Shown here: positions 2,541-24,800 of the stretch, piece by piece | How the letters are laid out: each line of letters begins with the position of its first letter | How positions within the stretch are numbered: position 1 is the stretch's first letter | IMG/VR virus record: IMGVR_UViG_3300044730_000647 | Location: 1,079-65,078 of that record | Strand: one strand, 5' to 3' | Length of the DNA stretch: 64,000 nt | Origin: a virus | Lineage: Duplodnaviria; Caudoviricetes | Translations under genes and position numbers: made by a program | Notes under the pieces: model-generated | Told to the model about the DNA's origin: nothing | Seen by the model: only the letters and a program-made list of their open reading frames with translations | Databases searched by the model: none

Positions 2541-2939
2541 ATGTCATTTGACACACTTAAGGTCAAAGATCTAAAGACGTTAGCAGCGGACTTCGCAGTT
2601 GATGTTGATGGACTAAAAAATAAAGCAGATGTTATTGCAGCACTAACAGAAGAAGGAGTAACTTGGTCAGTTTACCAAGGTACACTTAAAAACATAGAGA
2701 ACGCAAAAGAAGATGCAGATGAAATTCTTCCTAGACTTGATCCAAATCAAAAGCTTGATGAAGATATGGTTCTTGTAAAGATGGATCGACCAAACTACAG
2801 ATACGATGCACTTGGATTTACATTCACCATCGAGCACCCATTTGTAGCAATGAAGCCAGATTTGGCTCAAGAAATTTTTGATAAGGAGGAAGGGTTTAGA
2901 TTGGCTACACCTAGAGAAGTACAGGAGTACTACAACTAA
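2541..2939 (+). CDS. Head-region protein with N-terminal HeH/Rho-N-like domain
   Basis: LKVKDLKTLAADFAVDVDGLKNKADVIAAL resembles the helix-extension-helix motif; SD AGGAG. Confidence 0.55.
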   Translation: MSFDTLKVKDLKTLAADFAVDVDGLKNKADVIAALTEEGVTWSVYQGTLKNIENAKEDADEILPRLDPNQKLDEDMVLVKMDRPNYRYDALGFTFTIEHPFVAMKPDLAQEIFDKEEGFRLATPREVQEYYN

Positions 2940-2948
2940 GCCTAACAC

Positions 2949-3932
2949 ATGGCAGAGATATACATAAACACAAGCACGGCAGCAACAACAAAACTTTACG
3001 TAAAAGGTGAAGCTATAACGCCAACATCATCCGTAGTTGTAAAATTTTATGACATAACTGGCGATCCGCTTGTTTCTCCACAGATTAGTCCCTCATCAAT
3101 TATTGCTACTGTAACAGCAGAAGCGAGTGAAGTTGACCAAGGATCATTTAGTGTTTATCTGCCAGTGCAGCATTCAACAAGAAATAGAAAGTTTAAGTTA
3201 GTTTGGGATTGGCAGTATGACTCAGTTGCTTACTCTAGTACTACGTACCTTGATGTAGTTACTCCATATGTAGATATTCAAGAGGCAGCACAGGAGATAG
3301 GGTTTGGCTCAGACTCTAATGATCCAAACCATAAAACTTATCAAGAGCTAAAATTGGCTGAAAGATATGCTAGAAACATAATAGAAGGATATACTGGCCA
3401 AAAGTTTTATTTATATGACTCAAACTTTTCTACTATTGGTGATGATTCAGATACATTATCTTTCCCAATTAAAATAAATAGGCTACACACATTATATGCC
3501 AATGACCAGTTGTTAATAGATAATATTAATAACATAAACTCATTGGGAATGGTTATAGAGAATACCGCAAGTGGGTTTGGAATAAGAGTTAATCAGTCAT
3601 CAATATTAAATAATGATGTGTATATTGCAAACGGAATGGTTCCTCCGTCAATAAATGACTCTTCGCCAAACATATTTAGAAGATCTCAATCTTATAAAGT
3701 TTACGCTAGATTTGGGTGGGATAACGTTCCAAACGAAGTGCGTGATGCCTCAGTAGAGCTGATGAAGATGTATTTTGCAAAAGACAGAGTCTGGAGAGAA
3801 AGATATATTAAGAAAATATCTACAACAGATTGGGATTTTGAGTATTCCTCTGAAGCATTTAGCGGAACGGGATCTTCCTATGCTGACAAGCTTCTAGCAG
3901 ACTACGTTACAACTCAAATGGTATTACTATAA
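2949..3932 (+). CDS. Head-to-tail adaptor/connector protein
   Basis: Position after capsid; ARNIIEGYTGQKF and FGWDNVPNEVRDAS...ADKLLADY are typical adaptor motifs. Confidence 0.7.
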   Translation: MAEIYINTSTAATTKLYVKGEAITPTSSVVVKFYDITGDPLVSPQISPSSIIATVTAEASEVDQGSFSVYLPVQHSTRNRKFKLVWDWQYDSVAYSSTTYLDVVTPYVDIQEAAQEIGFGSDSNDPNHKTYQELKLAERYARNIIEGYTGQKFYLYDSNFSTIGDDSDTLSFPIKINRLHTLYANDQLLIDNINNINSLGMVIENTASGFGIRVNQSSILNNDVYIANGMVPPSINDSSPNIFRRSQSYKVYARFGWDNVPNEVRDASVELMKMYFAKDRVWRERYIKKISTTDWDFEYSSEAFSGTGSSYADKLLADYVTTQMVLL

Positions 3933-5640: not shown

Positions 5641-5744
5641 TTTGCCTTTTATAAGCTAGTAGAGTAAAATTAGAACAGAGGAAAGGGCCTAGCCAGCCAA
5701 AATATATATATTAATTTCATATGAAATCAGGAGGCAATACAATT

Positions 5745-6506
5745 ATGGCATATCAAAATACAGGAGACGCCCGCAACATTCTTGTTGGAGCATCACCACT
5801 ATTCTTGTCAGTAGAAGACTCAACAGTATCTGGTTACGATTCAAGCATGGATGCAGGCGAAGCAAACGCTTTTGTTGCATCAAAGAACCGTTTTGTACCA
5901 GCATTCTCATCAGGAGAGTCTTACACTACAACACTAAATAAAGTCTTAACAACAACAGGTGCTACTCAGACAGCAACACCTTCAGAATCAACACCAGCAA
6001 TTGGTGGAGCTTACCGTAACGTTGGTTACACAAATAACGGTCTACAGATCAGCTACCAACCAACATTTGACTCAGTAACTGTTGACCAGTTGCTAGATAC
6101 AGCTAAGCTGTTTAAGTCTGCAATGATGGTTCAGATCTCAACAGAAATGGCAGAAGGTACTCTAGAGAACGTTCTTGCAGTATTTGGTCAAAAGGGATCA
6201 ACACTTACATCAGCAGGAACAGGTGCAACAGCAGTTGACACACTAGGTTTGGAAGCAGGTGCACTAGGTGCAGCTCCAACAGAGCGTCAACTAATTGCAA
6301 TTGGACAGGCTCCAACTTCAGAAGCATCAGCAACTGAGCGTGTATATTATGCACGTCGTGTTTTGTCTGTTGAACAGTCACAGTTCTCTTTGGCTCGTAC
6401 AGCAGCAACAACATTCCCAGTAACATTCCGTCTTCTACCATCAGGTGACTCAGCTCACGCTGGTTCAGAATACGGTAAGATTATTGACCGCGTTCTAGCA
6501 ATTTAA
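5745..6506 (+). CDS. Major tail (tube) protein
   Basis: SD AGGAGG before ATG 5745; RNILVGASPLF and VGYTNNGLQISYQP...VDQL are tail-tube motifs; high-expression codon bias; followed by a terminator and chaperones. Confidence 0.85.
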   Translation: MAYQNTGDARNILVGASPLFLSVEDSTVSGYDSSMDAGEANAFVASKNRFVPAFSSGESYTTTLNKVLTTTGATQTATPSESTPAIGGAYRNVGYTNNGLQISYQPTFDSVTVDQLLDTAKLFKSAMMVQISTEMAEGTLENVLAVFGQKGSTLTSAGTGATAVDTLGLEAGALGAAPTERQLIAIGQAPTSEASATERVYYARRVLSVEQSQFSLARTAATTFPVTFRLLPSGDSAHAGSEYGKIIDRVLAI

Positions 6507-6613: not shown

Positions 6614-6946
6614 TTGGCAACAACAGTATATGATGTAGAAGAGATTGAACTACAAAGCGGAGCTAAAGTAAAGCTCAAGCCACTATCAATCAAGCAGCTA
6701 CGAAAGTTTATGGAAGTAATTAAGAAAGTTCAAGATGCAGAAGATGAAACAGCAACACTTGGAATTTTGGTTGAAGCATGCGGAGTAGCACTAGAAACAC
6801 AGCTTCCAGACCTAGTTGCTGATCTTGACAAGCTAGAAGATGCATTGGATGTTCCAACAATTAATAGAATCCTTGAAGTTTGCGGAGGAATCAAGATGGA
6901 CGACCCAAACCTAATAGCGGCAGCGGTACTGGCTGGTCAGAACTAG
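6614..6946 (+). CDS. Tail assembly chaperone (gpG-like)
   Basis: 110 aa between tail tube and TMP; strong SD, TTG start; slippery heptamer near its end. Confidence 0.85.
   Translation: MATTVYDVEEIELQSGAKVKLKPLSIKQLRKFMEVIKKVQDAEDETATLGILVEACGVALETQLPDLVADLDKLEDALDVPTINRILEVCGGIKMDDPNLIAAAVLAGQN
6904..6910 (+). other. Programmed -1 frameshift site C-CCA-AAC
   Basis: X-XXY-YYZ heptamer in the gpG frame (GAC CCA AAC); the -1 frame stays open to 7281. Confidence 0.8.
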
Positions 6947-7281
6947 ATTTAGCCGCTTTAGAAGGACAAGTTTTTCTTCTGGGTCACTGGAAGAATTACG
7001 AAGAATTAGAAGAAAATTTATCAATGCCAGAATTGGTTCAAACCATAACAGCGATAAATGAGAAAGAGCATAACCAAAGAAAATTTGCAGCGTCACTAAA
7101 AGGAATACAATTAGATGATGGTGTAGAAGAAAAAGAAAAAGGTTCTACCTTTGAAGATATCCAAAGAAGAGCACTTGGAATAAATGCATCAGCAGATGAT
7201 GTTGTTGGTTTACAAGGGCCCTTCGCAGCAAAAGCTGGATTTGGAATTGGCGCAGGGTTAGGATACTCTAGGAGTAATTAG
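6910..7281 (+). CDS. Tail assembly chaperone frameshift extension (gpT part of gpGT)
   Basis: Open -1 frame (PNSGSGTGWSELDLAALEG...) with no good start of its own, ending at the TMP start. Confidence 0.8.
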   Translation, partial: PNSGSGTGWSELDLAALEGQVFLLGHWKNYEELEENLSMPELVQTITAINEKEHNQRKFAASLKGIQLDDGVEEKEKGSTFEDIQRRALGINASADDVVGLQGPFAAKAGFGIGAGLGYSRSN

Positions 7282-10200
7282 TGGCTGACGAACAAATTGT
7301 AACCAGTATAGTCGCCAAAGCCGACTTGTCTAGCCTTGTGTCTGAAGTACACAGGGCTAGTTCTAGTCTCCAACAATTACAAAGAGAACTTCTTTCATCG
7401 AATAGAGCAATATCTGCTTCAACAAAATTAGCAAATAACTTATTTAGAGATACACTAACTGGAAGCGGACAGTTTTCTAGTCACTTTGTAAACCTTAATT
7501 CTGATGTAGATAAGTTTGGTAAAAACCTAGACTCTGGAAGATTAAAGCTTAAGAACTATTTCCAGACATTTAGAGAGCATGCTACAACTCAAAAGGGAAT
7601 GATAAGGGAGCTTGCCAAAGAGCAGGTAATGCTTCAAAACTCAGTTCTACAACCTTTAGGTAGAAATGCTCAAGGTCTAATGCAGTACAACGTTATGATT
7701 CCAAGAGGTTTGGATGCCGTAAAAAATAGCGCACAGCTAGCTCGCATGGAACTTCAGATAATGAATCGTGCACTATCTGAAGGAGCAGGATCTTTAATTA
7801 ACTGGGGTAAAAATACCCAGTGGGCAGGTCGTCAGCTTACAGTTGGACTTACAGTTCCATTAACAATGTTCGGTGCTGCAGCAGGAAAAGCTTTTAGAGA
7901 AGCAGACCAAGAGCTTGTAAGACTTACAAAAGTTTATGGTGGGCTAGCTGCAACTTCTGCAACCGACTTAAAAGCAATTAGAGAAGAAGTTGTACAGACA
8001 GCAAAATCTTTATCTCAAACAATGGGAGCTTCTTTTAAAGATACGATTGCCCTAGGTGCAGATATTGCGGCAACTGGAAAGATGGGCAACGACCTTTTAG
8101 GTTCCATAGAAGAAACAACCAGACTTGCAATCCTTGGAGAAGTAGATAGACAAGATGCCATGAAGGCTACTCTTTCAATTCAAACAGCTTTTAAGCAAAA
8201 TACACAACAGCTTACAGAATCAATTAACTTTCTTAACGCAGTTGAAAACCAGACTTCTACAACACTTAATGACTTAGTGGAAGCAATTCCAAAAGCTGGT
8301 CCAGTTATACAGCAGCTCGGAGGCAGCATTGAAGATTTAGCTCTTTACATGACTGCAATGAGAGAGGGTGGAATTAACGCATCTGAAGGTGCAAACGCAT
8401 TAAAGTCAGGTTTGGCTTCTCTTATTAATCCAACAAAGCAAACAGTTGGCATGATGTCTGATTTCGGCATAGATGTTCTGGGTATGGTTGCAAAAAATAC
8501 TGGAAACACAACTGGAATGCTTACAGATTTACAAACAGCTCTTAACAAACTAGATCCTTTAAGCAAAGCTAGAGCACTAGAACAAATGTTTGGTAAATTC
8601 CAGTTTGCAAGAATGAGCGCACTCCTAAACAACCTTGGAAAAGAAGGAAGCCAGACGCTTCAGGTTATGGATTTAATGAAAGCAAGTACTTCAGATTTGG
8701 CGGGAATTGCAGAGCGAGAATTAGGAATGATTACAGAGTCTGCATCTGGTAAATATAGAAAGGCAATGGAAAGCCTTAAAGCAGAGCTTGCAAGCGTTGG
8801 AGAAGAGTTTCTTGGAGTAGCAACAAAGCTTATAAATGCAGCATCAAAAATTCTAAACTTCTTTACTGAGTTGCCAACACCAATTAAAAAAGCTCTCACA
8901 TTTATGGCAGGATTTACAGCATTAGTTGGTCCACTAATTATGTTAACTGGTGTACTTGCTAACTTCTTTGGTTATATAACAAAGGGAATAGTCCAGCTTA
9001 GATCTTTCTTTATGAGAGCAAATGGATGGAAGATGCTTACTCCAGAAATTATTGCTGCTCAAAAAGCAGCAGAAATGGTTGAGAATGCATTTTATTCAGA
9101 TGCCGCTGCAGCTCAAGTTCTTCATAATGCATTACAAAAACTTGTTTTAGATTATCAAAACCTTCAAGCAGCATCAATGAAGAGCGCAGTTCCAGTAAAC
9201 GCAGGAGTGTCTACAGTTGCTGGAAATGCAATTGTTGCTCCTGCTCATGGAAGAAGAGTAGTTGACCCTAACGATCCATATGTTGGAGATCTTAATACTA
9301 GAGCAATGTCTCACATTAGACCAAGAGATCCTAATAACCCAGCCACCTTGTTTGGTGGTGTGCCAGGAGCTATACCAGTAAATAGAGGAATATCTAGAAC
9401 CCCTCAAATTTATATGCACGATAGACTTCCGAATGTTGAAGGGCTAACAAGTGTAAAGGGAATATCAACAGGAATTGTTGCGCCAGAGGCTGCAAAATTC
9501 CATGCGTTGATGGCAACTCTAGGAATGCAAACAGAGCAAGAAGTTGCAAATCTAAAGAAAACAATTGCAATGGGTGGAACGGTAAGCAGAGAACTGCTAG
9601 ATACATTCGATGATATTCTTCCAATAACTCAAAGATTTGCAGATAGCGCAGCAACTCAATCTGCATTAATTGTTCAACAAATGAGAAATGCAGAAATTAC
9701 TGTTGATCAAGCAAAAGCAAGAATACTTGCACTTAATGCACAAATAGAAGCAGACATGGGATCAGCAGTAAGTATGTATGCTGCTGGACGAGGAAGAACA
9801 ATTGATTTAACAAGAGCTCCAATGATGGATCAACCAGTTGTTGATGCTAATGGACAGTTTACACTTAGAGATTTGTATAAGAAAAAGACAAATGCTGCCG
9901 TCATGGAAGAGTTTGGAAGAGTCCGTGGTGTAAGAACATTTGGCGCACCTTACAGTATTCAAACAACAAGAATGCCTAAATTTAATATAGGTGGAGACAT
10001 TGAATCATTTGGTCCAAACAAAACAGTGGTTTCAGGACCATCTTCAGTAGACTATGATGATAGATTGGGAAGTGTTCCACTAGGCGGATATGTTTTGAAC
10101 CAGCAAGCTGCAATGGATCCAGCAAATGCCCCATTAGTTGCAATGGCTCCAAGCACATATTTAAATGACGGTGGAAATATTACAGCAGCTCTTACTCCAC

Positions 10201-13200
10201 GGGAAGTAGTTTTTGGTCCTCAAATTCAAAGAATGCCTGAGCTTTATGCAGCAGTTGATGCAGCAAATAGCGGATACAATTTTGGTGGGCAGATTATGAA
10301 CGGTATTCCTGGCTATGGGAAGAAGACAGATAAGACACCATCTAGCAAGATGGACGAAAGACTATTTAAAAAACAATACAAAGAATATTTAAGATTTATA
10401 AATAATCCAAGATATGAAGATGATCTAAGAATTAGAATGATTATGCTGGATGCAGCAGAGCTGGCTGGAACTGCAGGAATGCCAGTAGATGAAGCTATTA
10501 AGAAAGCAACATCTAACTTTGATAAAGCAAAGATGATGTCTGGTGGATCTGATGAAGAGTTCGTTAAGATAAGAATTAAACAGGTACAAAATTTAGAAAA
10601 GAAGTATCCAAAGTTACGTGTTAAGAATGCTAAAACAGCTCAAGAAAGCAAGAGCAACGCTTTAAATTATAAGCTAAATGATGTTAGAGATGCTATGATG
10701 GATAAAAATCGTTTTCCAAATTTTGTTGGAGTAAAGGATTTAATAGAAGCGGTTTCACCAACAACATTTAAAAATAAAGATGGTATGCCAATTATTCAAG
10801 GATTGCATGAAAGAGCACATTTTAGAAGACGTAAAGATCTTGGATATATGACTAGTGGCTATATGGGATTAGCTGCAGTACTACCTCCTGGAATAAATAA
10901 CATAATGAGCAGACTTGAAGGAATTGGTCTCTCTAGAGATGTTCTAAATTTAAATGCAGCAGATGCAAGAGAAAACTTCGAGCTAGCCTTAAAGCGCACA
11001 GGAATGGATAAGTTTGCAACAGTAGATGATCTATATGCCGCAGTTCAAGATGATGGAAAGTTTAAAACCAAATCTGAATATGAATCAGGAAGAGTTGTTA
11101 GGGCAACTAAAGAGCAAAAAAATTCTTTACGGATGTTTTTAGAAGCAGCTGCAAAAAGACAAAGATGGCTACCAACAAGACCTCCTAGGCTTGTTATGGG
11201 TGGATACAATCTTGGCGGAATGATTCCAGGTGGATACATATCTAGGGGCAGATCAAATTATGGAAATATTGCTCCTGCATTAAGATTGCTTGCACCAGAT
11301 AAACAATTAAAGATTTTAGCAAAGGCAAGAGAATTAAGCTCAAGAAGCTCGCTAGGCAAGTTTGCCGATATGCCAGTAACTGAGTATGGGCATCAAATTT
11401 CTGCAAGCACAGGGATGAGTTATCCTGTACCTGGTGTATCTGGATTGTATAAGGTCGGTAACAAAAAAGTTTTTGTTAAAGGTGTTCCTAATGAATTAAC
11501 TGCCGTCCATGAGCCAATTGGCACTCAAATTGCAAGAGATCTTTTTGGAATACATTCTCCAGTACAAACAGCTAGGACAGTTGCAAATCCAGTAGATCCA
11601 ACAAAAAGAACCAAGCTACTTGCTTTAGAATCAGATTACGACCCACGCTTTGCAAACACTAATGTGCCATGGGATGAAGATACAGTGCTCAGACAGCTTG
11701 CTAATTCTCTTCTTTTAAACAACAAAGATTTATCTAGAGCAAACGTGTATGGTAATTTTAATCCAGATGTTGGGCAAGCTGGAGTATTACCTAAAGCATC
11801 TGGCAATACACGTCTTGCAACAGCTGATGAAATGAACTCTATGGAAAAGCAAGCAATGATTAATCTACTTGCCGTTAAAGGTGGAGCAAGAAAAGATTTC
11901 GCACGTGACACTGCACCAATAATTTCTAAGATGAGTCCGAAAAAATATGGTCGACGAATGAAGAAAATATTAGAAGATGCTCGTCCAAAATTATTAAAAA
12001 TAATAAATGATTTACCTGTAGATCTTAGACCTCCTTATCAAGCAATGCTTAAAAGATTGGATGATGGTATAGAGGTTGATTGGAGTCAATATCATGCCGT
12101 GCATGCTAATCCAAAATATCTTAATGCTGGAGGTCCAGTTGGTGGCGGCCCAATTAAGCCAGGAAGACGTGCCTATGGTCGAAAAGATGGTTCACGTAGA
12201 CCAGGAAACCCTGCTGCAAGAGCTAATTGGGAAGCGGAACAACGTGCACAAAGAGAAAGAGATTTAGCAGCAGAAAGATCTAGGGCTTCATCTCGTCAAA
12301 TTACTGGTCAACAGGCTTTAACAACAGGATTAGGAAGAGAAGCAGTTAGATCTGGAACAACAAGCTTCTACAACCCTGGACAAGTAATGGTTAACAATAT
12401 GATCGACCCATTTAGAAATTCAGCAGCAATGAAAACTCAATATTTATCAGCAGCTTTTAGATCTATGGGAAATTCAATTAAGGTAGACTCTATGCAGCTA
12501 GCAAAAGCTATAGATATAAATGCAAGAGTTATTACTCAGTCTATAAAGAATACTGCTACAACCATGAGCAGTTCTGTAAGATCAGCTGCCACATCAACAT
12601 TAAATTTTGCCAGAAGAGCACAAAACGCAATCATAAGAGAGCAAAATGCATTTGCAGCAGCTAGATATCCTGTTGGACAAGCACCAGCACAAGGATTCTT
12701 TGGCCCAGGTTTTGTTGGAAATTACAAGGATTTGGGCGATAATATTCAGTCTAGAAAAGTAGGAACTCTAGGAATGAGAAGAACAGAGTACCTTGTAGAC
12801 GGAAACGTAATGACCGCAAAGCAAGCTAAAGCTGAAGGAATAAATATCCCAAGAAGATACAATGGTATGAGTATGGGTTCTCAAATGGGAATTGGAATGG
12901 CTGGATCAATGGGCGGAATGGCATTGATGAGCAAAGAAAAGGTTAACATCCTAGGAAAAGAAATGTCAGGTATGAATGTTGGCATGGGTGTTATGGCTGC
13001 TACTTCAATACTTCCAATGCTTCCATGGGGTAAAGTTGGTACTGGCATAAAGTCTGCTGGAACTGCGCTAAAAGGATTTTCATTGTCAATGAGCGGGCTA
13101 GCAAAATTTGGAGCTATGCTTGCAAGATTTGCTAAGGGCTTTGGTTTAATAGGAGCAGCAATAACGGTTGCAACTGCAGCATTTAAAATTTATAAGGATT

Positions 13201-16200
13201 ATAAAGATGCTCAGCAAGATGCTTCTATAGGACTTTCTATGACAGCTAAAGCTGCGGAGCAGGCTGGAATAAAGTATTTTAATCTTAAAGAAACCATGCA
13301 AGGCTACATAGATAAACAAAAATTAGCAACCGCAGCAGCCAAGGGTGCAGAAGGAAACTCAATTGGTATGCCTGGACTACCTCAATCAATAGAGGAACTA
13401 AAGAAGGCAAAAGAAGAAGGAAAACAATTAAAAGATGTAATTGAATCCTTAAATAGATCAGAAACAACAGCAGAAACACAAAGATTAATTAATAATCAAA
13501 AAGCACAAATGGTTGCTGCTGGAATGAGCGTTGAAGAAGCAAATAAAAAAATATACGGTGCTTTAGCAAATAGCAATAAAGCCTCTCAAGCATACAAACT
13601 GCTTGCAAATACAGAATTTGGAGCAATAACAGATAAAGCTACAGCGGCAGAATTTTCTGTTGGAAATTTGGTAAACACCTTAAGCAAAGGAACAGGAACT
13701 GCTGATTGGTATAAAGAGGTAGGAAACGGTTTTGAAGGACTAATAGGTGTATTTTCTGAAGCAACAAAATCTTTAGTTGGAACAAAAGATGAGCTTGGAA
13801 ATGTTATAGATGAGTTTAAAGCTTATGAAATGGTTATGTCTAAAGCAGAAACAAATAACCCAGGCATGAATAAAGAAATAGGTAGAGACGTATACTTAAA
13901 TCTTCAAAAAACACAACCTTTGCTAGCGGGAATCATTAATGAATCAGACACTATAAAGGGAATACTTGCAAAGTGGAAACTTTTTACTGCTGGAATAAAT
14001 ATTGATCTAAGCAAAATAGATTCTACTCTAGCATCAAAACTTGCTGGATTTACTTCAGCAATCGGAACAGGAATCTCCCAGCTAACACAAGCTGCTGATT
14101 CTGCTACCACATACGCGACTGTTGGATCTGCTTTATCTAAACTTCAAAAAACAATTGCTGCAACTTCTGCAGCAGCTCAAAGAGCAAATGCAGCTTCTCA
14201 AAGAAGTGCACAGGAAGAATTAAAAGCAATTGCTAAAAAAATTAAGCTTATAGATGAAGAAAAAAATAAAAAGCTGGAGGCCTTAAGAGCAACTCAAGAT
14301 GCATCAAATTATGCATTGCAATTACAAAAGCTTCAGATAGAATATGCAGATGCTGTCTCTCGTGGAGACATGGCTGCAGCAAATCAAGCCAAGTTGGATA
14401 TAGATCAACTCACACTTAATAGACAAGCCGACCTTGCTCAAAAAGCAATAGAGGATGCAGCAAATAAAGCAAAGGCACCTTTAGAAAAAGATGCACAAGC
14501 AATACAAGACGCACAAGATAAAAAGAATACTGTTTTTCAAAATAATCAAGATAACTCTGCAGTAGCAGCTGATATAAAAGAATCTCTTGAAAAATTCCAG
14601 CTAACGTATAACGAGCTTAGTACAAGAGCTGTTAACGCACAGCTTCTTTCAGGTAAAGATAGAGTTGAAGAAGAAGCAGATATTAAGAAACAGCTTATTA
14701 GTTTCCTAAAAGAAATGCAAAAGGCTGGTACTGGACCAGGCCTGCTTGCACAAACAATAAGAAATGCATTCCCAGGATATTTTAATTCAGACGGAAAGCC
14801 AAAAGTTCCTGAAACAGTAACTACTGGATCTCCAACTGGATTTGATGCACAGGGAAGACCTATTCTTTCAACAAATACAACAGTAAACAATGATTCTCTT
14901 TCCCAGTTTAATAAAGATATTGCAGCTGTAAGCAAGCTAGCAGTTGCTATAACTGGAAATGTTACTTTGAGAAAATTACGTGACGACCTTGTGGAAGCAC
15001 TAGGTAAGTATAAGGGTGATATTAAATACGGATCAAAGGCTCAAGCATTAGAAGTTAAAGGTAGCAAGTATGATAAGTATTTGCAAGAAGACGGAAGCTT
15101 AAATTCTCAAGGTAGAAGAGCTTTAATGAAGGACAATAAATTAGGAGCAGATCAGTTCTTTACATATAAAGGAAAGACATATAGGGGGCAGGGAGCTGGC
15201 GCAGATGACTTATTGCCAGCAGTTTTGCAAAAAGCAGATGGCGGATATATAAAACACTTTAATCCAGGAGGAAAAGTTACTGGTCCAGGAACGGCAACAT
15301 CGGATTCTATTCCAGCAATGCTTTCAGATGGAGAGTATGTATTTAGTGCAAAGGCTGTAGACGCCGCTGGTGGTGCAGATGTTGTAGATGGTTGGCACAA
15401 AGCACTTAGAAGAGCAGATGGCGGTCCAATTCTTACATCACCAAGACAAAAGAAACCAGGTGTTCCATATTCAAGATCTGGAAGACCGATAGGAAATCCT
15501 TTTGGACAATACTGGGGAGAGCTTTCAAGATTTATTGGACCACGTAGTCCAGGCATGGATATTTGGGGCGGAACAGAAATACCAGGACTTAAGTTTACTG
15601 GAAAGGTTCCACAGCATTCAGACTACATGCATCAGATGCTTGAGCAGCCACGCAAGCCATTTACAAGCCCAGGAATGGGTCTAGACAAAGACCCTATGCG
15701 CCTTGCAGGCTCTGGAGCCTCTATGGGCGGTATCGGTAATGGAGCCTATGGACTAGGGCCACTCATGTTTGCAAACGGTGGTCCAGTATCTTCGTTTGGG
15801 TATCATGCAAAGCCAGACCCAAAACAATCATTCTTAAATAGAATTCTATTTGGAGTAAAGTATGTTGGGGGGCCACAGCCAACGCAATTAGGTGTTCCAT
15901 TTGGTCCTGGTGGAGTAGCAAAAATTGCTAAAATGTTAGCAAATATTAAAGAAGCAAAAGCGTTTACACATTTTGCTCATTCTCCTATAGATTCATTACA
16001 GCCATCAATAGGAAGAAAAAGCCCAGCAATGGCAAACTTTGGTCTTGGCACTTATGGATCCACTAAGGGGATATTTGAGGGCGCACAATTTGGAGAAGTG
16101 GCACATAAACTAAGCTTGTCACCATTTGCTTGGATTAAAACAGCTTTAGGTAAAGGACCGATTGACGATGCTGGATTGGCATTAGAGGCAGCGGCATTTA

Positions 16201-16736
16201 ATAAAGCAACAGGATCAAAAATTAGTGGAAGCTCAATGTATTTACACAATGAAGATTTTGTAAAATTCTTATCTAGCAGAGGATACACTGGTTATAAAAC
16301 TGGAGACATAGTTACAAATTGGAAAGTTGGTTCCCCAGGATTTGGTTTAAAAACCTCACTAGGAAAAGTTCCTTTCGGTGGTATTCCAAAGTCTACATCT
16401 TCTCAAACAATTGATCCACCTAGCGGACTAATCCTTGCCAACGGTGGTTTTGTTACTAAATCTCTTTCAAACCTTGGCGTACCGATGTTTGAAAATGGAA
16501 TTAATATGGTTCCTGCAAATATGCTTGCGATGCTTCATAAAGATGAAGCAGTTATCCCAGCTAACATGAATCCATTTAATCCAAATGCTACGGCGGCAGC
16601 AACAGGATCAGTATATAATATAAATGTAGAATTAAATGGAACAAACGTGACAGCAAAAGATGTTGCACTAGAAATACGTAATGAGATGAGATTAAAAGAA
16701 ATGGCAGCTGGAGTAAATAGAAAGGTTGGGTCATAA
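7281..16736 (+). CDS. Tape measure protein with inserted putative effector domains
   Basis: 3151 aa after the chaperones; N-terminal TMP core (LNAVENQTSTTLNDLVEAIPKAG, EGANALKS), hydrophobic segments and the GPGTATSDSIPAMLSDGEYV TMP motif; extra inserts described in findings. Confidence 0.93.
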   Translation: MADEQIVTSIVAKADLSSLVSEVHRASSSLQQLQRELLSSNRAISASTKLANNLFRDTLTGSGQFSSHFVNLNSDVDKFGKNLDSGRLKLKNYFQTFREHATTQKGMIRELAKEQVMLQNSVLQPLGRNAQGLMQYNVMIPRGLDAVKNSAQLARMELQIMNRALSEGAGSLINWGKNTQWAGRQLTVGLTVPLTMFGAAAGKAFREADQELVRLTKVYGGLAATSATDLKAIREEVVQTAKSLSQTMGASFKDTIALGADIAATGKMGNDLLGSIEETTRLAILGEVDRQDAMKATLSIQTAFKQNTQQLTESINFLNAVENQTSTTLNDLVEAIPKAGPVIQQLGGSIEDLALYMTAMREGGINASEGANALKSGLASLINPTKQTVGMMSDFGIDVLGMVAKNTGNTTGMLTDLQTALNKLDPLSKARALEQMFGKFQFARMSALLNNLGKEGSQTLQVMDLMKASTSDLAGIAERELGMITESASGKYRKAMESLKAELASVGEEFLGVATKLINAASKILNFFTELPTPIKKALTFMAGFTALVGPLIMLTGVLANFFGYITKGIVQLRSFFMRANGWKMLTPEIIAAQKAAEMVENAFYSDAAAAQVLHNALQKLVLDYQNLQAASMKSAVPVNAGVSTVAGNAIVAPAHGRRVVDPNDPYVGDLNTRAMSHIRPRDPNNPATLFGGVPGAIPVNRGISRTPQIYMHDRLPNVEGLTSVKGISTGIVAPEAAKFHALMATLGMQTEQEVANLKKTIAMGGTVSRELLDTFDDILPITQRFADSAATQSALIVQQMRNAEITVDQAKARILALNAQIEADMGSAVSMYAAGRGRTIDLTRAPMMDQPVVDANGQFTLRDLYKKKTNAAVMEEFGRVRGVRTFGAPYSIQTTRMPKFNIGGDIESFGPNKTVVSGPSSVDYDDRLGSVPLGGYVLNQQAAMDPANAPLVAMAPSTYLNDGGNITAALTPREVVFGPQIQRMPELYAAVDAANSGYNFGGQIMNGIPGYGKKTDKTPSSKMDERLFKKQYKEYLRFINNPRYEDDLRIRMIMLDAAELAGTAGMPVDEAIKKATSNFDKAKMMSGGSDEEFVKIRIKQVQNLEKKYPKLRVKNAKTAQESKSNALNYKLNDVRDAMMDKNRFPNFVGVKDLIEAVSPTTFKNKDGMPIIQGLHERAHFRRRKDLGYMTSGYMGLAAVLPPGINNIMSRLEGIGLSRDVLNLNAADARENFELALKRTGMDKFATVDDLYAAVQDDGKFKTKSEYESGRVVRATKEQKNSLRMFLEAAAKRQRWLPTRPPRLVMGGYNLGGMIPGGYISRGRSNYGNIAPALRLLAPDKQLKILAKARELSSRSSLGKFADMPVTEYGHQISASTGMSYPVPGVSGLYKVGNKKVFVKGVPNELTAVHEPIGTQIARDLFGIHSPVQTARTVANPVDPTKRTKLLALESDYDPRFANTNVPWDEDTVLRQLANSLLLNNKDLSRANVYGNFNPDVGQAGVLPKASGNTRLATADEMNSMEKQAMINLLAVKGGARKDFARDTAPIISKMSPKKYGRRMKKILEDARPKLLKIINDLPVDLRPPYQAMLKRLDDGIEVDWSQYHAVHANPKYLNAGGPVGGGPIKPGRRAYGRKDGSRRPGNPAARANWEAEQRAQRERDLAAERSRASSRQITGQQALTTGLGREAVRSGTTSFYNPGQVMVNNMIDPFRNSAAMKTQYLSAAFRSMGNSIKVDSMQLAKAIDINARVITQSIKNTATTMSSSVRSAATSTLNFARRAQNAIIREQNAFAAARYPVGQAPAQGFFGPGFVGNYKDLGDNIQSRKVGTLGMRRTEYLVDGNVMTAKQAKAEGINIPRRYNGMSMGSQMGIGMAGSMGGMALMSKEKVNILGKEMSGMNVGMGVMAATSILPMLPWGKVGTGIKSAGTALKGFSLSMSGLAKFGAMLARFAKGFGLIGAAITVATAAFKIYKDYKDAQQDASIGLSMTAKAAEQAGIKYFNLKETMQGYIDKQKLATAAAKGAEGNSIGMPGLPQSIEELKKAKEEGKQLKDVIESLNRSETTAETQRLINNQKAQMVAAGMSVEEANKKIYGALANSNKASQAYKLLANTEFGAITDKATAAEFSVGNLVNTLSKGTGTADWYKEVGNGFEGLIGVFSEATKSLVGTKDELGNVIDEFKAYEMVMSKAETNNPGMNKEIGRDVYLNLQKTQPLLAGIINESDTIKGILAKWKLFTAGINIDLSKIDSTLASKLAGFTSAIGTGISQLTQAADSATTYATVGSALSKLQKTIAATSAAAQRANAASQRSAQEELKAIAKKIKLIDEEKNKKLEALRATQDASNYALQLQKLQIEYADAVSRGDMAAANQAKLDIDQLTLNRQADLAQKAIEDAANKAKAPLEKDAQAIQDAQDKKNTVFQNNQDNSAVAADIKESLEKFQLTYNELSTRAVNAQLLSGKDRVEEEADIKKQLISFLKEMQKAGTGPGLLAQTIRNAFPGYFNSDGKPKVPETVTTGSPTGFDAQGRPILSTNTTVNNDSLSQFNKDIAAVSKLAVAITGNVTLRKLRDDLVEALGKYKGDIKYGSKAQALEVKGSKYDKYLQEDGSLNSQGRRALMKDNKLGADQFFTYKGKTYRGQGAGADDLLPAVLQKADGGYIKHFNPGGKVTGPGTATSDSIPAMLSDGEYVFSAKAVDAAGGADVVDGWHKALRRADGGPILTSPRQKKPGVPYSRSGRPIGNPFGQYWGELSRFIGPRSPGMDIWGGTEIPGLKFTGKVPQHSDYMHQMLEQPRKPFTSPGMGLDKDPMRLAGSGASMGGIGNGAYGLGPLMFANGGPVSSFGYHAKPDPKQSFLNRILFGVKYVGGPQPTQLGVPFGPGGVAKIAKMLANIKEAKAFTHFAHSPIDSLQPSIGRKSPAMANFGLGTYGSTKGIFEGAQFGEVAHKLSLSPFAWIKTALGKGPIDDAGLALEAAAFNKATGSKISGSSMYLHNEDFVKFLSSRGYTGYKTGDIVTNWKVGSPGFGLKTSLGKVPFGGIPKSTSSQTIDPPSGLILANGGFVTKSLSNLGVPMFENGINMVPANMLAMLHKDEAVIPANMNPFNPNATAAATGSVYNINVELNGTNVTAKDVALEIRNEMRLKEMAAGVNRKVGS

Positions 16737-20996: not shown

Positions 20997-21853
20997 TAAC
21001 TAAATTTGGTAAAAGATTTCTTACTAATTTTGTAGCTGGTAACTCATCATTTTCTTCAAAAGAAATGGCTATTGGAATTGCAACAGGAACTGAATATGCT
21101 TTGTCAGATACAAACTCAAGACTTGGTTTTGAGTTCTATCGTGTTCCAATTAGGGTCGGAGGGATCGATATAGACTCTTCTGTATCACCAATAAAATATA
21201 CAGTAATCTATTCAGCTACACTTCCTACAAACATTGCAGGTAAGATTAATGAAATTGGAATCTACTCTGGCCAGTCTTATTCAAGAAATTTATATGAAAG
21301 CAAATTTATATCTAACTTTGAATTGCCATACCAGTGGAGTCCAGAGCCAGAGCTAGATCAAACAAACTTTAGAGTTGGAGATAGTTCGTTAACATTTACA
21401 TCAAATGGGGCGGCCCCAAAAGAGTACACTTACATACTTGATAGTATGGATATATCTGGGTACAACCCATTAGATACATTATCATTTTCATACAAAGCAA
21501 ATGATGCAAACCTGTCCTCATTGAAGGTAAGGCTCTATAGCTCAAATACCGATTACTTAGAATTTACATTTACTGGACACTCAGTTGGAAACAATATAAA
21601 GAATTTAAACATGTCTACTGGGGTATCAACAGGAACATTTAATCCACAAAGTGTTGTTAAGTTAGGAATTATTGTTACTCCAACAACTGCTCAAACATCT
21701 GTATCTATGGATGGTCTTAGAATAAATGACGAGGACACCTTTGATCCAGAATACGGTCTCATTGCCAGATCTATACTAGACTCAACAATGATTAAAGTAA
21801 TTGGAAGAGAAGCATCAATAGAATTTAAACTAGACCTTTCGTTTGGGGTTTAA
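20993..21853 (+). CDS. Tail/baseplate-associated structural protein
   Basis: MITKFGKRFL...MAIGIATG...INEIGIY N-terminus typical of tail collar/fibre-anchor proteins, plus a carbohydrate-binding-like C-terminal half. Confidence 0.6.
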   Translation: MITKFGKRFLTNFVAGNSSFSSKEMAIGIATGTEYALSDTNSRLGFEFYRVPIRVGGIDIDSSVSPIKYTVIYSATLPTNIAGKINEIGIYSGQSYSRNLYESKFISNFELPYQWSPEPELDQTNFRVGDSSLTFTSNGAAPKEYTYILDSMDISGYNPLDTLSFSYKANDANLSSLKVRLYSSNTDYLEFTFTGHSVGNNIKNLNMSTGVSTGTFNPQSVVKLGIIVTPTTAQTSVSMDGLRINDEDTFDPEYGLIARSILDSTMIKVIGREASIEFKLDLSFGV

Positions 21854-21854
21854 T

Positions 21855-24800
21855 GTGTCAGAACAATATCCAGATCTAGGAATAACTCAGAGTCAAGATG
21901 GAGACTACTGGGATGTTGTAATCCCAGATCTAGATTGTAATACTGATTATGCATTGCAGGCTGCTTGGATATATAGCGATAAGTCTTTGGGAACAAGCGA
22001 ATTTTCAGACAGATTTAATTTTACTACACCTGCACCCTCAAGGGTTTGCCCAATAAACGTAGTCGCCACATGGGATGCAACGGCTGGATTAAATTTAACA
22101 TGGACAAAAAATGATGACCGTGTAAGAAATTATGTAGTGTCGCTAACTGCTGGTGGATATACAAGATCTCAACTTATTCCAGCATCTGGCTCATCATTAA
22201 ATTATTCATGGGTTCTTACTAAAGAAAATAATATTTTTCAGTTTGGAAATAAATTTAGAACAGAATTTACATCTTTTACTATTCAAAGTGTGTATGGTGA
22301 TGGAAGCTCAGACCAATGCCCAGTAACGCTAGCACCGTATGTTGATCCAATATGTGCAAACTCTATACCAGACGATAAATGGAAAGTGGCAAGTACTATA
22401 GATGGAATAATGGTATCTTGGCAAGATGATCTATCAAAAGCTTTAACGTATAGAGAGACAAGAGTTTTTGTATCTTTAACCAATAACCCTTACAATTGGG
22501 TTCAAAGGTATACTGGAATTGGCCCTGCCGATATAGGCCTAGATACAATAAATGATGTTTATGTTAAAGTTAATCACTTATCATATTCCGATTGCCAGGG
22601 TCTGGACTCTTCTGTAAAAACAGCAAAGATATTTGATCCTCAAACATTTGATAAAGAGCCTCCAAACGAAGTAGTTCTAGGAAATGTAACCTGGTCTGGA
22701 GAGGACCTTGTTATACCATACACAATGCCTTTAACAAACCCTCCAGATAGATTTAAGATTACTTTAACAAATACTTTAACTCCTCCAACATCAGCAATAT
22801 TTTATGGCGAGCCTCCATCTGCTTCTGGAACTCATAGTTTAAAAATACCATATTCTGATTTTCTTCTAAATTTTGGTTATTTAAATTTAACACCCTCATA
22901 CACTGGGCTTTTTCAGTCTAGAGATATTGCTGGAAACTTTACTGCTGGAGTATCATTCACAACTCCCACAATTGGATGCCAAGGAACTGGATTAACTCCC
23001 ACCATTGATGACGCATTTGGCATAAGTGCTGGTTACACTGTTATATGGACAGCACCATCGTGGGCGGTAGCAACAGAAGTTTATGCGAGAGATGCTGGTA
23101 GCCAGCAATCAACTTTAGTTTATTCTGGCCCAAGCCCAGCAATAAAAGGCACCGAGCTTGACACAAGCCCTTTTGCAGATAAGATAGTAAAAATAAGATA
23201 CGTTGGAAAATTTGGCTGCTACTCTAATTTTTCTTTAGAGAAAACAGTAAAGCCAATAGATTCAATTGCATTTGATGACAACCCTCCAGAGAATGATTTT
23301 GAATTGCAATCAGCTACAGTATCCGATGACTCTAACGGCTTATTTTCTTTTGATAAAAAAGTTTTATTTACATGGACAGAAAATACAGATCCAGACACTG
23401 CTGGATATAGAATTAGATTTAGGATACAGGGATCAACAGGTCCTTACACATACATGTCTGTACCAGGAAGAACCAAAACTTCCTCTTATCTTTATGGTCT
23501 AAAAGGCGGAAAGACATATGAGATTGCTGTTAGCACATTTGATATTTACGGAAACACAAATGAAACCGCATGGAGAACTTATGATCCTGTAGTATCTCCA
23601 GTCAGCAACTCCTTGCTTCCAGATGTAGCAATAACCGCTGGAGACATGAAGCTTGGATATGGAATTGACGGAGATAATTCTCAAAAAGGACTTTACGTAG
23701 CGCCAAATAATTATTGGTATGTGCAAGGAAATACTAATGAGTCGAGTGCTGCTTACTTTACAGTCGGTGGAACAACAGACAAAATGGTTTGGGACGGAAT
23801 GGATTTATCAGTAACTGGAACTGTAAATGCAAATGCTGGAAACTTTACTGGATCAGTTGATATTGGAAGTGCTACAGTTCCTGGCCAACTAAGAGTTTAT
23901 TCTGGTGCCAATAAATTTGAAGTAGGACAATTAAAAAATTCATCTGGTGCATTTATAAATGAGTATGGAATTCAGGGGACAGATGCAAGTGGACAGCTGT
24001 TTCAGCTCGATACATTAAATGGAATTATAACAAATAAAGGACGCATTGGCGGATGGGAAATTTCTTTAGACAAGATAGAAAAGGGAAACACGGTTTCTGT
24101 AGGAACCCCTGCTGTTTCATCTATGAGATATGCGGGAATGTCTCCAGGAAGCACCTATTCATTTTGGGCAGGCTCACCTTCAGCAGGCGGATCTGATGCA
24201 GCAGAATTTTACGTTAAGCCTAATGGATATGTTAAAGCAAACAATATTGATATTACTGGCGGTAAGATAAAAGTTGGCTCAGGGTTTGAAGTTGCAGCAA
24301 CTACTGGATTACTAAAAGCCAATGATGCTAATATACGAGGAAGCATATATGTAGACAATGGAGTGATAGGTTCTATTCAAATAGGTGGATCGGCTACAAG
24401 AACTGGTGACACATCTCCTACTAACTTCGGCGACGGCCAAATACTTTTGAACACAGACCAAGGAAAGATAGAGTTTGGAGTTTTAAAAGATCAACTCGGT
24501 GCTAAAATTGGAACTGGTATTCAGGTAACAAGCACAGCAGACGGACAATTTGTTTCTTTGGATACAGTGAATGGAATTAAAGCAGTAAAAGGATTAATAG
24601 CTGGATGGACATTGTCAAAGGATGCATCTGGCTCATCCATTAACTATGGTGGAAATGTTGGACTATATGCTCCAAATACATCATCAGATTCAACAGTAAT
24701 GATTTGGGCTGGAGGATCTAGAACGGTCTCTCCTAATTTCTCTGTTACCTACTCAGGTAAAATGACTGCAGTAGATGCAGTTATTAAAGGAGCACTATTT

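Follow-up and report, generated by a model that had tools for sequence, protein, structure and literature searches.

Phage tail tape measure proteins (TMPs) are cut in at least two cultured phages, T5 and lambda, and these remain the only two TMPs for which cleavage is known, each being cut once near the C-terminus. In phage T5, the TMP pb2 is cut during tail assembly after R1127 into pb2* and pb2C (PMC10038345), the cut lying between a hydrophobic stretch and a C-terminal piece that is expelled and has been proposed to digest peptidoglycan. Inspection of the pb2 sequence shows that the mapped cut falls inside the word RAEGG, in the context FVPR|AEGGMMYPG..GEHGTEVVTP. Similarly, the lambda TMP gpH (853 aa) is cut into gpH* and gpHC in its glycine-rich C-terminal region, giving fragments of about 78 and about 14 kDa, whereas neither the site nor the catalyst is known according to the 2025 Ur-lambda paper (PMC12617516). 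In addition, some TMPs carry embedded wall-degrading domains that are delivered at infection, such as the Rpf/M23 motifs of the mycobacteriophage TM4 type and the enterococcal TMP transglycosylases, although these are single lytic domains for which no kinase, no repeated joint motif and no cassette swapping have been described. Polyvalent proteins of phages and plasmids (Iyer et al. 2017, PMC5512222) are very large, mosaic, virion-delivered proteins that mix kinases, GNATs, ARTs, peptidases and lysozymes, with cassette-like variation and a proposed autoproteolytic release, but the main text of that study contains no occurrence of the term tape measure. Finally, the Sle1-type TMP-related effectors of actinobacterial contractile injection systems consist of a TMP-derived scaffold with exchangeable, ejected C-terminal functional domains (PMC13277306), which are cargo of an injection system and not the ruler of an infectious phage tail.

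Here, a giant TMP was analysed in a 64,000-nucleotide stretch of an uncultivated siphovirus (Caudoviricetes; IMG/VR record IMGVR_UViG_3300044730_000647, positions 1,079 to 65,078), hereafter the window. A sequence-only reading had proposed that the region 9972-16560 encodes a TMP built as a polyprotein, in which about ten copies of a [FYLKR]-[NA]-x-GG motif bracket inserted cargo domains, and had inferred that the motif is a cleavage and/or recombination junction that turns the TMP into a delivery vehicle for host-takeover or anti-defence enzymes. The observation itself is confirmed. The gene is a single plus-strand ORF at 7281-16736 encoding 3151 aa, thus the start proposed in that reading (9972) lies in the middle of the gene. 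It begins with GTG at 7281, while another GTG at codon 20 (7338) is the start implied by a 3132-aa database copy. The regular expression matches at aa 901, 961, 999, 1309, 1614, 2651, 2660, 2711, 2830 and 3052, corresponding to window positions 9981, 10161, 10275, 11205, 12120, 15231, 15258, 15411, 15768 and 16434, which are all ten of the proposed sites; those at 10161 and 12120 had been written with a preceding Y and hence one codon earlier. The related FENG is at 16488, and the four ranges proposed as inserts (10290-11204, 11220-12116, 15426-15767 and 15783-16433) are correct as inter-motif segments.

The protein belongs to the TP901-type TMPs, since it matches Pfam PhageMin_Tail (PF10145) at aa 239-438 with 95.5 bits (cut-off 33.2) and TIGR01760, the only NCBIfam match, at aa 192-549 with 96.8 bits (cut-off 28.8), and 13 PHROG families labelled TMP hit its N-terminus. 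Its neighbourhood is that of a tail module: upstream lie an Ig-domain protein (5721-6506) and two small overlapping ORFs without a functional label (6614-6946 and 6880-7281), and downstream a 196-aa ORF, a 1100-aa 'minor tail protein' (phrog_10359, 3.4e-91) and a 'tail protein'. Against 50,697 cultured phage records, a megablast search with the gene and a tblastn search with aa 901-3151 at 1e-5 returned nothing, and only a 65-aa module query found records. A scan of genome contigs with the profile of the kinase-like domain described below gave 89 pattern matches, none of which was confirmed, and therefore no clue to the host.

The ten words exceed chance expectation, as the mean was 1.28 in global shuffles and 1.27 in shuffles of 200-aa blocks, with a maximum of 7 and with 0 of 5000 shuffles reaching 10 in either scheme. 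Because the expression was fitted after reading the sequence, this comparison overstates significance, and the independent support comes from the conservation of the words at the same junctions in 28 related metagenomic TMPs. The word opens a conserved joint module of about 60 residues, phi-A/N-x-GG..GPG..D..PAxLSxGExV-helix-phi-A-x-GG. A 65-aa module query hit 20 PHROG families, of which 13 are labelled TMP, 6 are of unknown function and 1 is labelled endolysin, and the module occurs in TMPs of 245 cultured-phage records, among them Gordonia, Arthrobacter, Casadabanvirus and Pelagibacter phages. With an extended module HMM, aa 2644-2735 of the window's protein score 57.5 bits and lambda gpH 717-810, a region bounded by FATGG (733) and YATGG (778), scores 20.1 bits, against a null maximum of 6.8 in 300 shuffles. 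The claim that other words lead into degenerate versions of the TMP motif is only partly supported, since a 34-residue motif HMM scores the copy at aa 2660-2693 at 54.7 bits and LAMLHKDEAVIP at 5.2 bits (E 0.12), and does not report the two copies in 9981-10289, which fit by eye and by position only. In this window, then, only 1 of the 10 words heads a motif copy that scores strongly.

The N-terminal TMP core (7281-9980) contains PhageMin_Tail at 7995-8594 and a hydrophobic, hairpin-like stretch at 8889-8981, and is 88-99% identical to relatives. It is followed by segment B (9981-10289), which holds three joint words (FNIGG at 9981, LNDGG at 10161 and YNFGG at 10275) with eroded copies of the PAxLSxGExV motif, at a position that holds a canonical copy in the wider family. 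Cassette C (10290-11204, 305 aa) occurs in two allelic types among relatives, with about 28% identity over the first third, and is flanked by an imperfect 24-nt direct repeat encoding GYN[FL]GG. No fold could be assigned to it: there was no Pfam or PHROG hit, the best PDB profile match had an E-value of 1.5, and the Atlas gave no usable hit. The C/D joint YNLGGMIPGGYISRGRSNYG (11205-11264) is conserved in all aligned relatives, and the D/E joint LNAGGPVGGGPIKPGRRAYG (12120-12182), on the far side of cassette D (11220-12119), is likewise conserved in relatives. Segment E (12183-15230) is a long Ala/Lys/Glu/Gln-rich body with a second hydrophobic stretch (13128-13184), and is presumed to be the ruler or channel part. 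Module F (15231-15425) is the one canonical joint module (KADGG, FNPGG-KVTGPGTATSDSIPAMLSDGEYV-helix-RADGG). Cassette G (15426-15767, 114 aa) ends in a glycine-zipper-like stretch (AGSGASMGGIGNGAYGLGPLMF) and is followed by the G/H joint FANGG (15768-15782). Cassette H (15783-16433) has a conserved core of about 160 aa (15906-16385) that is present in 6 other giant TMPs. Its AlphaFold model, built from a 6-row alignment, reached a pLDDT of only 45.3, a PDB profile search gave nothing below E 0.76, a scan of viral contigs gave one weak locus, and the Atlas gave only leads below 0.9, including ART-PolyVal at 0.82 (rank 7). Module I (16434-16733) comprises the LANGG joint, an eroded motif copy (VPANMLAMLHKDEAVIP, 16506-16580) and a C-terminal tail (YNINVELNGT plus a helix), and is by position the counterpart of T5 pb2C and lambda gpHC.

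Cassette D is an atypical protein-kinase-like domain by structure prediction. The model (pLDDT 68.6, pTM 0.68) has strands at domain residues 75-88, a helix at 92-109, strands at 117-139 and then helices, in agreement with the bilobal fold of the protein-kinase-like (PKL) superfamily. The Foldseek list is dominated by kinases, with CtkA in the top five rows (E 2.1e-3, TM-scores 0.35-0.40), and in a VIA-wide fold comparison nearly all 50 rows are kinase-like folds, the top rows all being kinases with Z 9.5-7 over 175-206 aligned residues (MavQ 9.5, CtkA 9.2, CotH 8.9, PI4KIIalpha 8.9). These scores and the model quality are moderate. The predicted catalytic residues, namely the beta-3 Lys, the helix-C Glu, the D-x4-N of the catalytic loop and the Asp of D-x-G, are K1400 (11478-80), E1411 (11511-13), D1483 (11727-29), N1488 (11742-44) and D1496 (11766-68), which correspond to K87, E98, D170, N175 and D183 of the domain. 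Together with G75, these are conserved in 132 of 132 representatives, except for D170 with 131 of 132, and the catalytic residues are also invariant in the 18 close relatives, although their assignment to kinase roles rests on spacing and model position and not on a superposition. No Pfam family matched at E<=10, no NCBIfam family matched, and no kinase was found among the PDB sequence hits, therefore the domain is best filed as a new sequence family with a predicted PKL fold and not as a member of a named kinase family such as Pkinase, HipA_C or PI3_PI4_kinase. It occurs almost only in giant TMPs: 160 representatives match at E<=1e-3, and of the 150 listed, 114 are at least 2000 aa long. The domain is thus a conserved core part of a large family of giant TMPs, and the view that it is a sporadic insert is not supported.

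Alignment of TMPs from related phages, the check that the sequence-only reading had asked for, showed that homology blocks break at the joints in the 28 relatives, which measure 2798-4130 aa for the 23 ORFs that end inside their locus. Segment identities are discordant, as relative L017 shares 97% with A, 28% with C and 96% with D, while relative L010 shares 76% with C and 52% with D. DNA homology to L017 and two further relatives, L019 and L026, stops at aa 1007-1017 and resumes at aa 1310-1312, in the C/D joint. Cassette G (aa 2720-2836) is a transposed block, with 87-89% DNA identity to L017 and relative L003, where it sits about 290-300 aa further along the protein. The C-terminal region of relatives gains 0 to about 1300 aa, and 4 of 10 regions submitted to Pfam contain CHAP and 2 of 10 contain LysM, all above the Pfam cut-off. 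Among 14 whole proteins of wider family members, M23 was found in 1, OmpA in 2, LysM in 1 and CHAP in 1. GNAT-like and HExxH modules also occur in relatives, the latter being absent here. Overall, 255 of 566 internal ends of HSPs of at least 100 aa lie within 25 aa of the motif, whereas random positions give 10.8% (maximum 23% in 1000 trials) and control words are not enriched. However, 'any GG' is also enriched at breakpoints (84.6% against 41%), hence part of the signal may simply reflect Gly-rich linkers between domains. At the DNA level, only one weak repeat pair was detected at the joints, the 24-nt pair flanking C at 79%, which makes a DNA recombination signal unlikely.

As in T5, where a hydrophobic stretch precedes the cut, a glycine-zipper stretch is followed here by FANGG, and LANGG heads a 99-aa C-terminal tail, but T5 has one joint and one small cargo, whereas this protein has about 10 words, several large cassettes and a kinase-like domain. 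RAEGG is one of only two regex matches in the 1219 aa of pb2, yet the similarity of T5 to the module is not statistically significant: the module HMM gave no hit at the cut site, the tail HMM gave 1.7 bits against a null 95th percentile of 2.7, and the hhalign probability was 0.2, thus the T5 link rests on a five-residue word plus position. Lambda gpH carries the joint module but no inserted cassettes and no enzyme, and its comparison with the C-terminal-tail profile gave an hhalign probability of 0.4. A cut of gpH before A734 (F|ATGG) would give fragments of 79.8 and 12.5 kDa, close to the published sizes. The many unrelated domains and the mosaic variation of this family, with the kinase-like D here and CHAP, LysM, GNAT-like and HExxH modules in relatives, are shared with polyvalent proteins, while none of the signature domains of that class (MPTase, ART-PolyVal, the truncated polyvalent kinase and others) was detected, as no polyvalent-protein Pfam family scored for any segment. 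Furthermore, the polyvalent kinase clade lacks the C-terminal subdomain, whereas D has a helical C-lobe in the model. Literature searches with strings of the motif found no relevant paper, and those combining tape measure protein with polyvalent protein or with kinase domain found none that describes this arrangement, judging mostly from search listings.

Taken together, these findings suggest, with a confidence only slightly better than even, that the gene encodes a giant TMP in which an ancient and common TMP joint module, with some copies reduced to eroded remnants, separates independently evolving cassettes: C with its two types, D as an atypical protein kinase that is very probably active as far as fold prediction and residue conservation can tell, the glycine-zipper piece G, the 160-aa domain of H, and CHAP, LysM, HExxH and GNAT-like modules in relatives. 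In this view, related phages exchange, insert or lose cassettes by recombination whose surviving products break at the joints. The motif, its conservation, the breakpoints and the predicted kinase fold with its catalytic residues rest directly on the analysis, whereas the catalytic activity of D, the exit of the TMP from the tail ahead of the DNA, so that three to six copies of each cassette would reach the host envelope or cytoplasm, and any proteolytic processing are inferred. By analogy with R|AEGG of T5, at least the C-proximal joints (FANGG 15768 and LANGG 16434) may be processing sites. That at least one such cut occurs seems about as likely as not, but several cuts that would free the kinase and other cassettes appear unlikely on present evidence. 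There is no direct evidence of any cut in this protein, the first motif residue varies (F, Y, L, K, R), which is odd for a sequence-specific protease site, and no protease was identified. The sequence-only interpretation is therefore partly supported: the TMP identity, the position of the motif at module borders, the exchange of modules at these borders and the presence of at least one segment with a predicted enzyme fold hold, polyprotein processing is plausible but unproven, and a host-takeover or anti-defence role is not supported, since the recognisable cargo is mostly cell-wall directed, a PADLOC search of 5 segments gave no hits, and C, G and H have no assignable fold.

An alternative that remains possible, though less favoured, is that the modules are purely structural joints, flexible or lightly folded linkers that let bulky cassettes be threaded in the tail lumen and keep the chain in register, with the TMP never being cut at them except perhaps once near the C-terminus and the cassettes acting while tethered to the TMP channel. 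Breakpoints would then accumulate at joints only because recombinants that split a domain are lost. Conservation of the motif as protein and not as DNA repeats, the enrichment of any GG at breakpoints, the erosion of most copies in the window, the scarcity of TMPs known to be cut, and the fact that the module region is unresolved in the lambda and T5 tail-tip maps, as expected of a flexible linker, are all compatible with this view. On the other hand, the mapped T5 cut lies exactly in the word, the lambda fragment sizes fit a cut at its copy, and strong conservation of a specific 30-residue motif is more than a plain flexible linker needs.

It is very unlikely that the motif is itself a small catalytic or wall-binding element whose repeats raise local cell-wall activity rather than marking borders. 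Linares et al. describe a 'metallopeptidase motif shown to have muralytic activity' directly after the T5 cut, and GEHGTEVVTP lines up by eye with LSDGEYV and HKDEAVIP, but there is no conserved metal-ligand pattern across copies (S/H and D/G/K vary), the alignment to T5 is not significant, and the dedicated CHAP and M23 domains of relatives would make such an activity redundant. Chance or composition is even less probable. Although the expression is degenerate and the protein contains 9.4% Gly and 11.6% Ala, this reading is contradicted by the shuffles, by the breakpoint analysis and by the conservation of the words at orthologous junctions across relatives that differ in the flanking cassettes. 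In addition, the expression picks out the module in lambda, T5 and MP22, with 2, 2 and 1 matches, of which 2, 1 and 1 lie at the module or cleavage site (the other T5 match, RALGG at 138, does not). At the speculative end, and unlikely on present evidence, phi-[NA]-x-GG could be the general processing determinant of siphophage TMPs, in which case giant TMPs that repeat it would be true polyproteins, the tail lumen would serve as a delivery channel from which a dedicated protein kinase and other enzymes are cut free and injected ahead of the DNA, and new cargo could be plugged in at any joint by recombination.

To conclude, where and how TMPs are cut is an old open question, and a short conserved word that coincides with the mapped cut of T5, bounds the lambda module and bounds every cassette here yields a concrete prediction, namely that gpHC would start at A734. 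The joints are also natural splice points for engineering cargo into phage tails. Furthermore, a large uncultivated phage family (160 clusters at 50% identity) carries a conserved, apparently active predicted kinase inside its tape measure, therefore protein delivered through the tail lumen may include signalling enzymes, and not only wall hydrolases.

The region lies inside a single open reading frame of 3151 aa, which spans 7281..16736 on the + strand; the window is most of a 65-kb IMG/VR virus record. A database copy of this protein is 3132 aa long, that is, called from the GTG at codon 20 (7338) instead of the one at 7281, but relatives align from the first codon, which leaves the true start uncertain by 19 codons. 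The N-terminal third is a tape measure protein (TMP), since it matches the Pfam family PhageMin_Tail with 95.5 bits (cut-off 33.2) and TIGR01760 with 96.8 bits, and it hits 13 PHROG families labelled TMP. The protein also contains two separate, strongly hydrophobic stretches, one in the N-terminal TMP core (8889-8981, aa 537-567) and one at the start of the long segment E (13128-13184, aa 1950-1968), and looks like two ruler or channel units in tandem. The neighbouring genes fit a siphovirus tail module, with a head maturation protease, an Ig-domain protein and two small overlapping ORFs upstream, and a 196-aa ORF, a 1100-aa 'minor tail protein' and a 'tail protein' downstream. Directly after the tail genes, two very large ORFs of 1243 and 1358 aa (21843-25574 and 25587-29663) have no PHROG match at E<=1e-3, and are presumably fibre or receptor-binding proteins of an undescribed kind.

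The sequence-only reading had described ten [FYLKR]-[NA]-x-GG words and a related FENG in this region, and this observation holds, as all eleven were recovered at the positions it had assigned to them. Shuffled sequences give 1.3 such words on average with a maximum of 7, and 0 of 5000 shuffles reach 10, although the pattern was fitted after the fact, and the stronger evidence is therefore conservation. In 28 related TMP genes retrieved from viral metagenome contigs, the words recur at the same junctions; the 23 of these ORFs that end inside their locus are 2798-4130 aa long, while 5 more run off a contig end.

The word is the first element of a longer conserved unit, for which 362 instances give the consensus FAKGG-VVSVPG-(loop)-D-TVPAMLSPGEAVIPAKAV-(helix)-GKIPGFAKGG. 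The one well-preserved copy in the window, aa 2651-2715, alone hits 20 PHROG families (13 labelled TMP, 6 of unknown function and 1 labelled endolysin) and 245 cultured-phage records, nearly all of which are annotated as TMP where the row is annotated. Lambda gpH carries the unit at residues 717-810 (20.1 bits, as compared to 6.8 for the best of 300 shuffles), and the pattern matches gpH only at 733 and 778, the two ends of that unit, whereas in the MP22 TMP it matches only at the start of the unit. The other copies in the window are eroded. A 34-residue HMM gives 54.7 bits to aa 2660-2693, 5.2 bits to LAMLHKDEAVIP, and nothing to the two copies in 9981-10289, yet these two occupy the position where the wider family has canonical copies.

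That cassettes are exchanged at the word is supported by several lines of evidence. Identities to the window are discordant between segments: the relative L017 (L numbers denote the related metagenomic loci) shares 97% with the N-terminal segment A, 28% with cassette C and 96% with cassette D, L010 shares 76% with C and 52% with D, and L002 shares 95-98% with A-D, 55-63% with E and 90% with the C-terminal module I. Cassette C exists in two types, swapped between the conserved joints GY[NS]FGGQIM.G..GYG and phi-N-x-GGMIPGGSISRGRSNYG, and at the DNA level homology to L017, L019 and L026 stops at aa 1007-1017 and resumes at 1310-1312. Small extra insertions also sit exactly at the C/D joint, where L019 has a second FNAGG word plus 36 aa (TMP aa about 1329-1368), and L006 and L014 have a 44-aa piece after ..SYG. 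Similarly, cassette G (aa 2720-2836) is an 87-89% identical block that sits about 290-300 aa further along in L003 and L017, and homology in the tail resumes at 3063-3070. Between the canonical joint module F and the tail, relatives carry from nothing to about 1300 aa.

Furthermore, of 566 internal ends of HSPs of at least 100 aa among 17 complete, non-redundant TMPs (11 of the 28 loci were left out, namely near-duplicates and the 5 ORFs that run off a contig end), 255 (45%) lie within 25 aa of the word, while random positions give 10.8% (maximum 23% of 1000). Three control words are not enriched, but 'any GG' gives 84.6% against 41%, and the endpoints are not independent, because the sequences are related. 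Within the gene the joints share almost no DNA similarity, which indicates that the peptide is conserved and not a DNA recombination signal. The only similar pair is a 24-nt imperfect direct repeat (79%) at 10272-10295 and 11202-11225, which flanks cassette C and encodes G-Y-N-[FL]-G-G, so that the joint looks as if it was duplicated when C was inserted; most members of the wider family have the kinase directly after the first joint, with no C.

Cassette D (aa 1314-1613) is predicted to adopt a protein-kinase-like fold. A model built from 18 sequences has a pLDDT of 68.6 and a pTM of 0.68, and in a Foldseek search CtkA fills the top five rows (E 2.1e-3), with the rest of the list dominated by protein kinases. 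An independent VIA-wide search gives MavQ (Z 9.5), CtkA (9.2), CotH (8.9) and PI4KIIalpha (8.9), followed by Fam20, actin-fragmin kinase, HipA and PIKKs, and nearly all of its 50 rows are kinase-like folds. Although these scores are moderate, the predicted catalytic set of Lys 1400, Glu 1411, Asp 1483, Asn 1488 and Asp 1496 is conserved in 131-132 of 132 representatives that share no more than 50% identity. No Pfam, NCBIfam or PDB sequence match to D was found. The D profile finds 160 representatives among 1.84 billion proteins and no classical kinase; of the 150 that were listed, 114 are at least 2000 aa long and 108 contain a TMP core word. Of 121 representatives with complete flanks, 73 have a canonical motif copy upstream of D, 43 have one downstream and 40 have both. 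In addition, a D-x-D-D-T-L word (IFDIDDTLLD, YDFDDTLIDL), seen by eye only, follows the kinase domain in some TMPs of the wider family (proteins P0014, P0057 and P0082), which suggests a HAD-type phosphatase cassette next to the kinase.

The C-terminal regions of relatives hold CHAP (4 of 10 regions submitted) and LysM (2 of 10) above Pfam cut-offs, and weak GNAT matches below cut-off (2 of 10). L010 and L011 (TMP aa about 2925-3415) and L002 (aa about 2885-3400) hold long C-terminal cassettes with no Pfam match. HExxH words are visible by eye, as L002, L013 and L016 contain HELGHR and L025 contains HEFAH, which appear zincin-like by eye but reach only E 0.1 as SprT-like. Fourteen wider family members with long C-terminal extensions add Peptidase_M23 (1), OmpA (2), LysM (1) and CHAP (1). 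By contrast, cassettes C, G and H of the window could not be assigned: cassette H has a 160-aa core that is shared with 6 other giant TMPs, but its model was unusable (pLDDT 45.3) and the Atlas gave only weak leads, and searches with C against Pfam, against the PDB by profile and in the Atlas gave nothing. G ends in a glycine-zipper-like stretch directly before the FANGG word.

Cleavage of this protein at the word can only be inferred, but the literature offers a pointed parallel. The cleavage of T5 pb2 was mapped 'after R1127', between a hydrophobic stretch and the C-terminal muralytic piece that is expelled into the periplasm (Linares et al., PMC10038345). In the T5 record the sequence at this site is FVPR|AEGGMMYPGVSYQMGEHGTEVVTP, and RAEGG is one of just two matches of the pattern in 1219 residues and holds the only GG in the last 219. 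Lambda gpH loses an approximately 14-kDa peptide from its glycine-rich C-terminal region, which leaves an approximately 78-kDa gpH*; the site and the catalyst are reported to be unknown, and only the T5 and lambda TMPs are known to be cut (PMC12617516). A T5-like cut before A734 (F|ATGG) would give 79.8 and 12.5 kDa. However, the T5 stretch is not significantly similar to the module by two HMMs or by hhalign, the first residue of the motif varies, both known cases are single cuts, and no protease is identified, the only recognisable one near the TMP being the 438-aa head maturation protease that opens the window (53-1369; phrog_9427, 6.8e-125). It therefore seems about as likely as not that at least one joint here is cut, most likely FANGG or LANGG, whereas multi-site polyprotein processing is possible but rather unlikely.

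The interpretation offered by the sequence-only reading, a modular vehicle for host-takeover or anti-defence enzymes with the motif as a cleavage and/or recombination junction, is thus supported only in part. The words, their conservation and the breakpoints near them were established by the analysis itself, while proteolytic processing and any kinase activity of D are inferences from sequence, from a predicted fold and from the T5 and lambda precedents. The anti-defence reading has no support, as a PADLOC search gave nothing and the recognisable cargo is wall-directed. TMPs with lytic domains, T5-type and lambda-type cleavage, polyvalent proteins (PMC5512222, the main text of which never mentions 'tape measure') and TMP-derived swappable effectors in contractile injection systems (PMC13277306) are already known. 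In the openly accessible literature that was searched, neither a conserved TMP-borne kinase, nor the repeated joint module as the unit of cassette exchange, nor the coincidence of the word with the T5 cut was found. As for the kinase-like cassette D, the distribution of its representatives indicates that it is a conserved part of a family of giant TMPs and not a sporadic insert.
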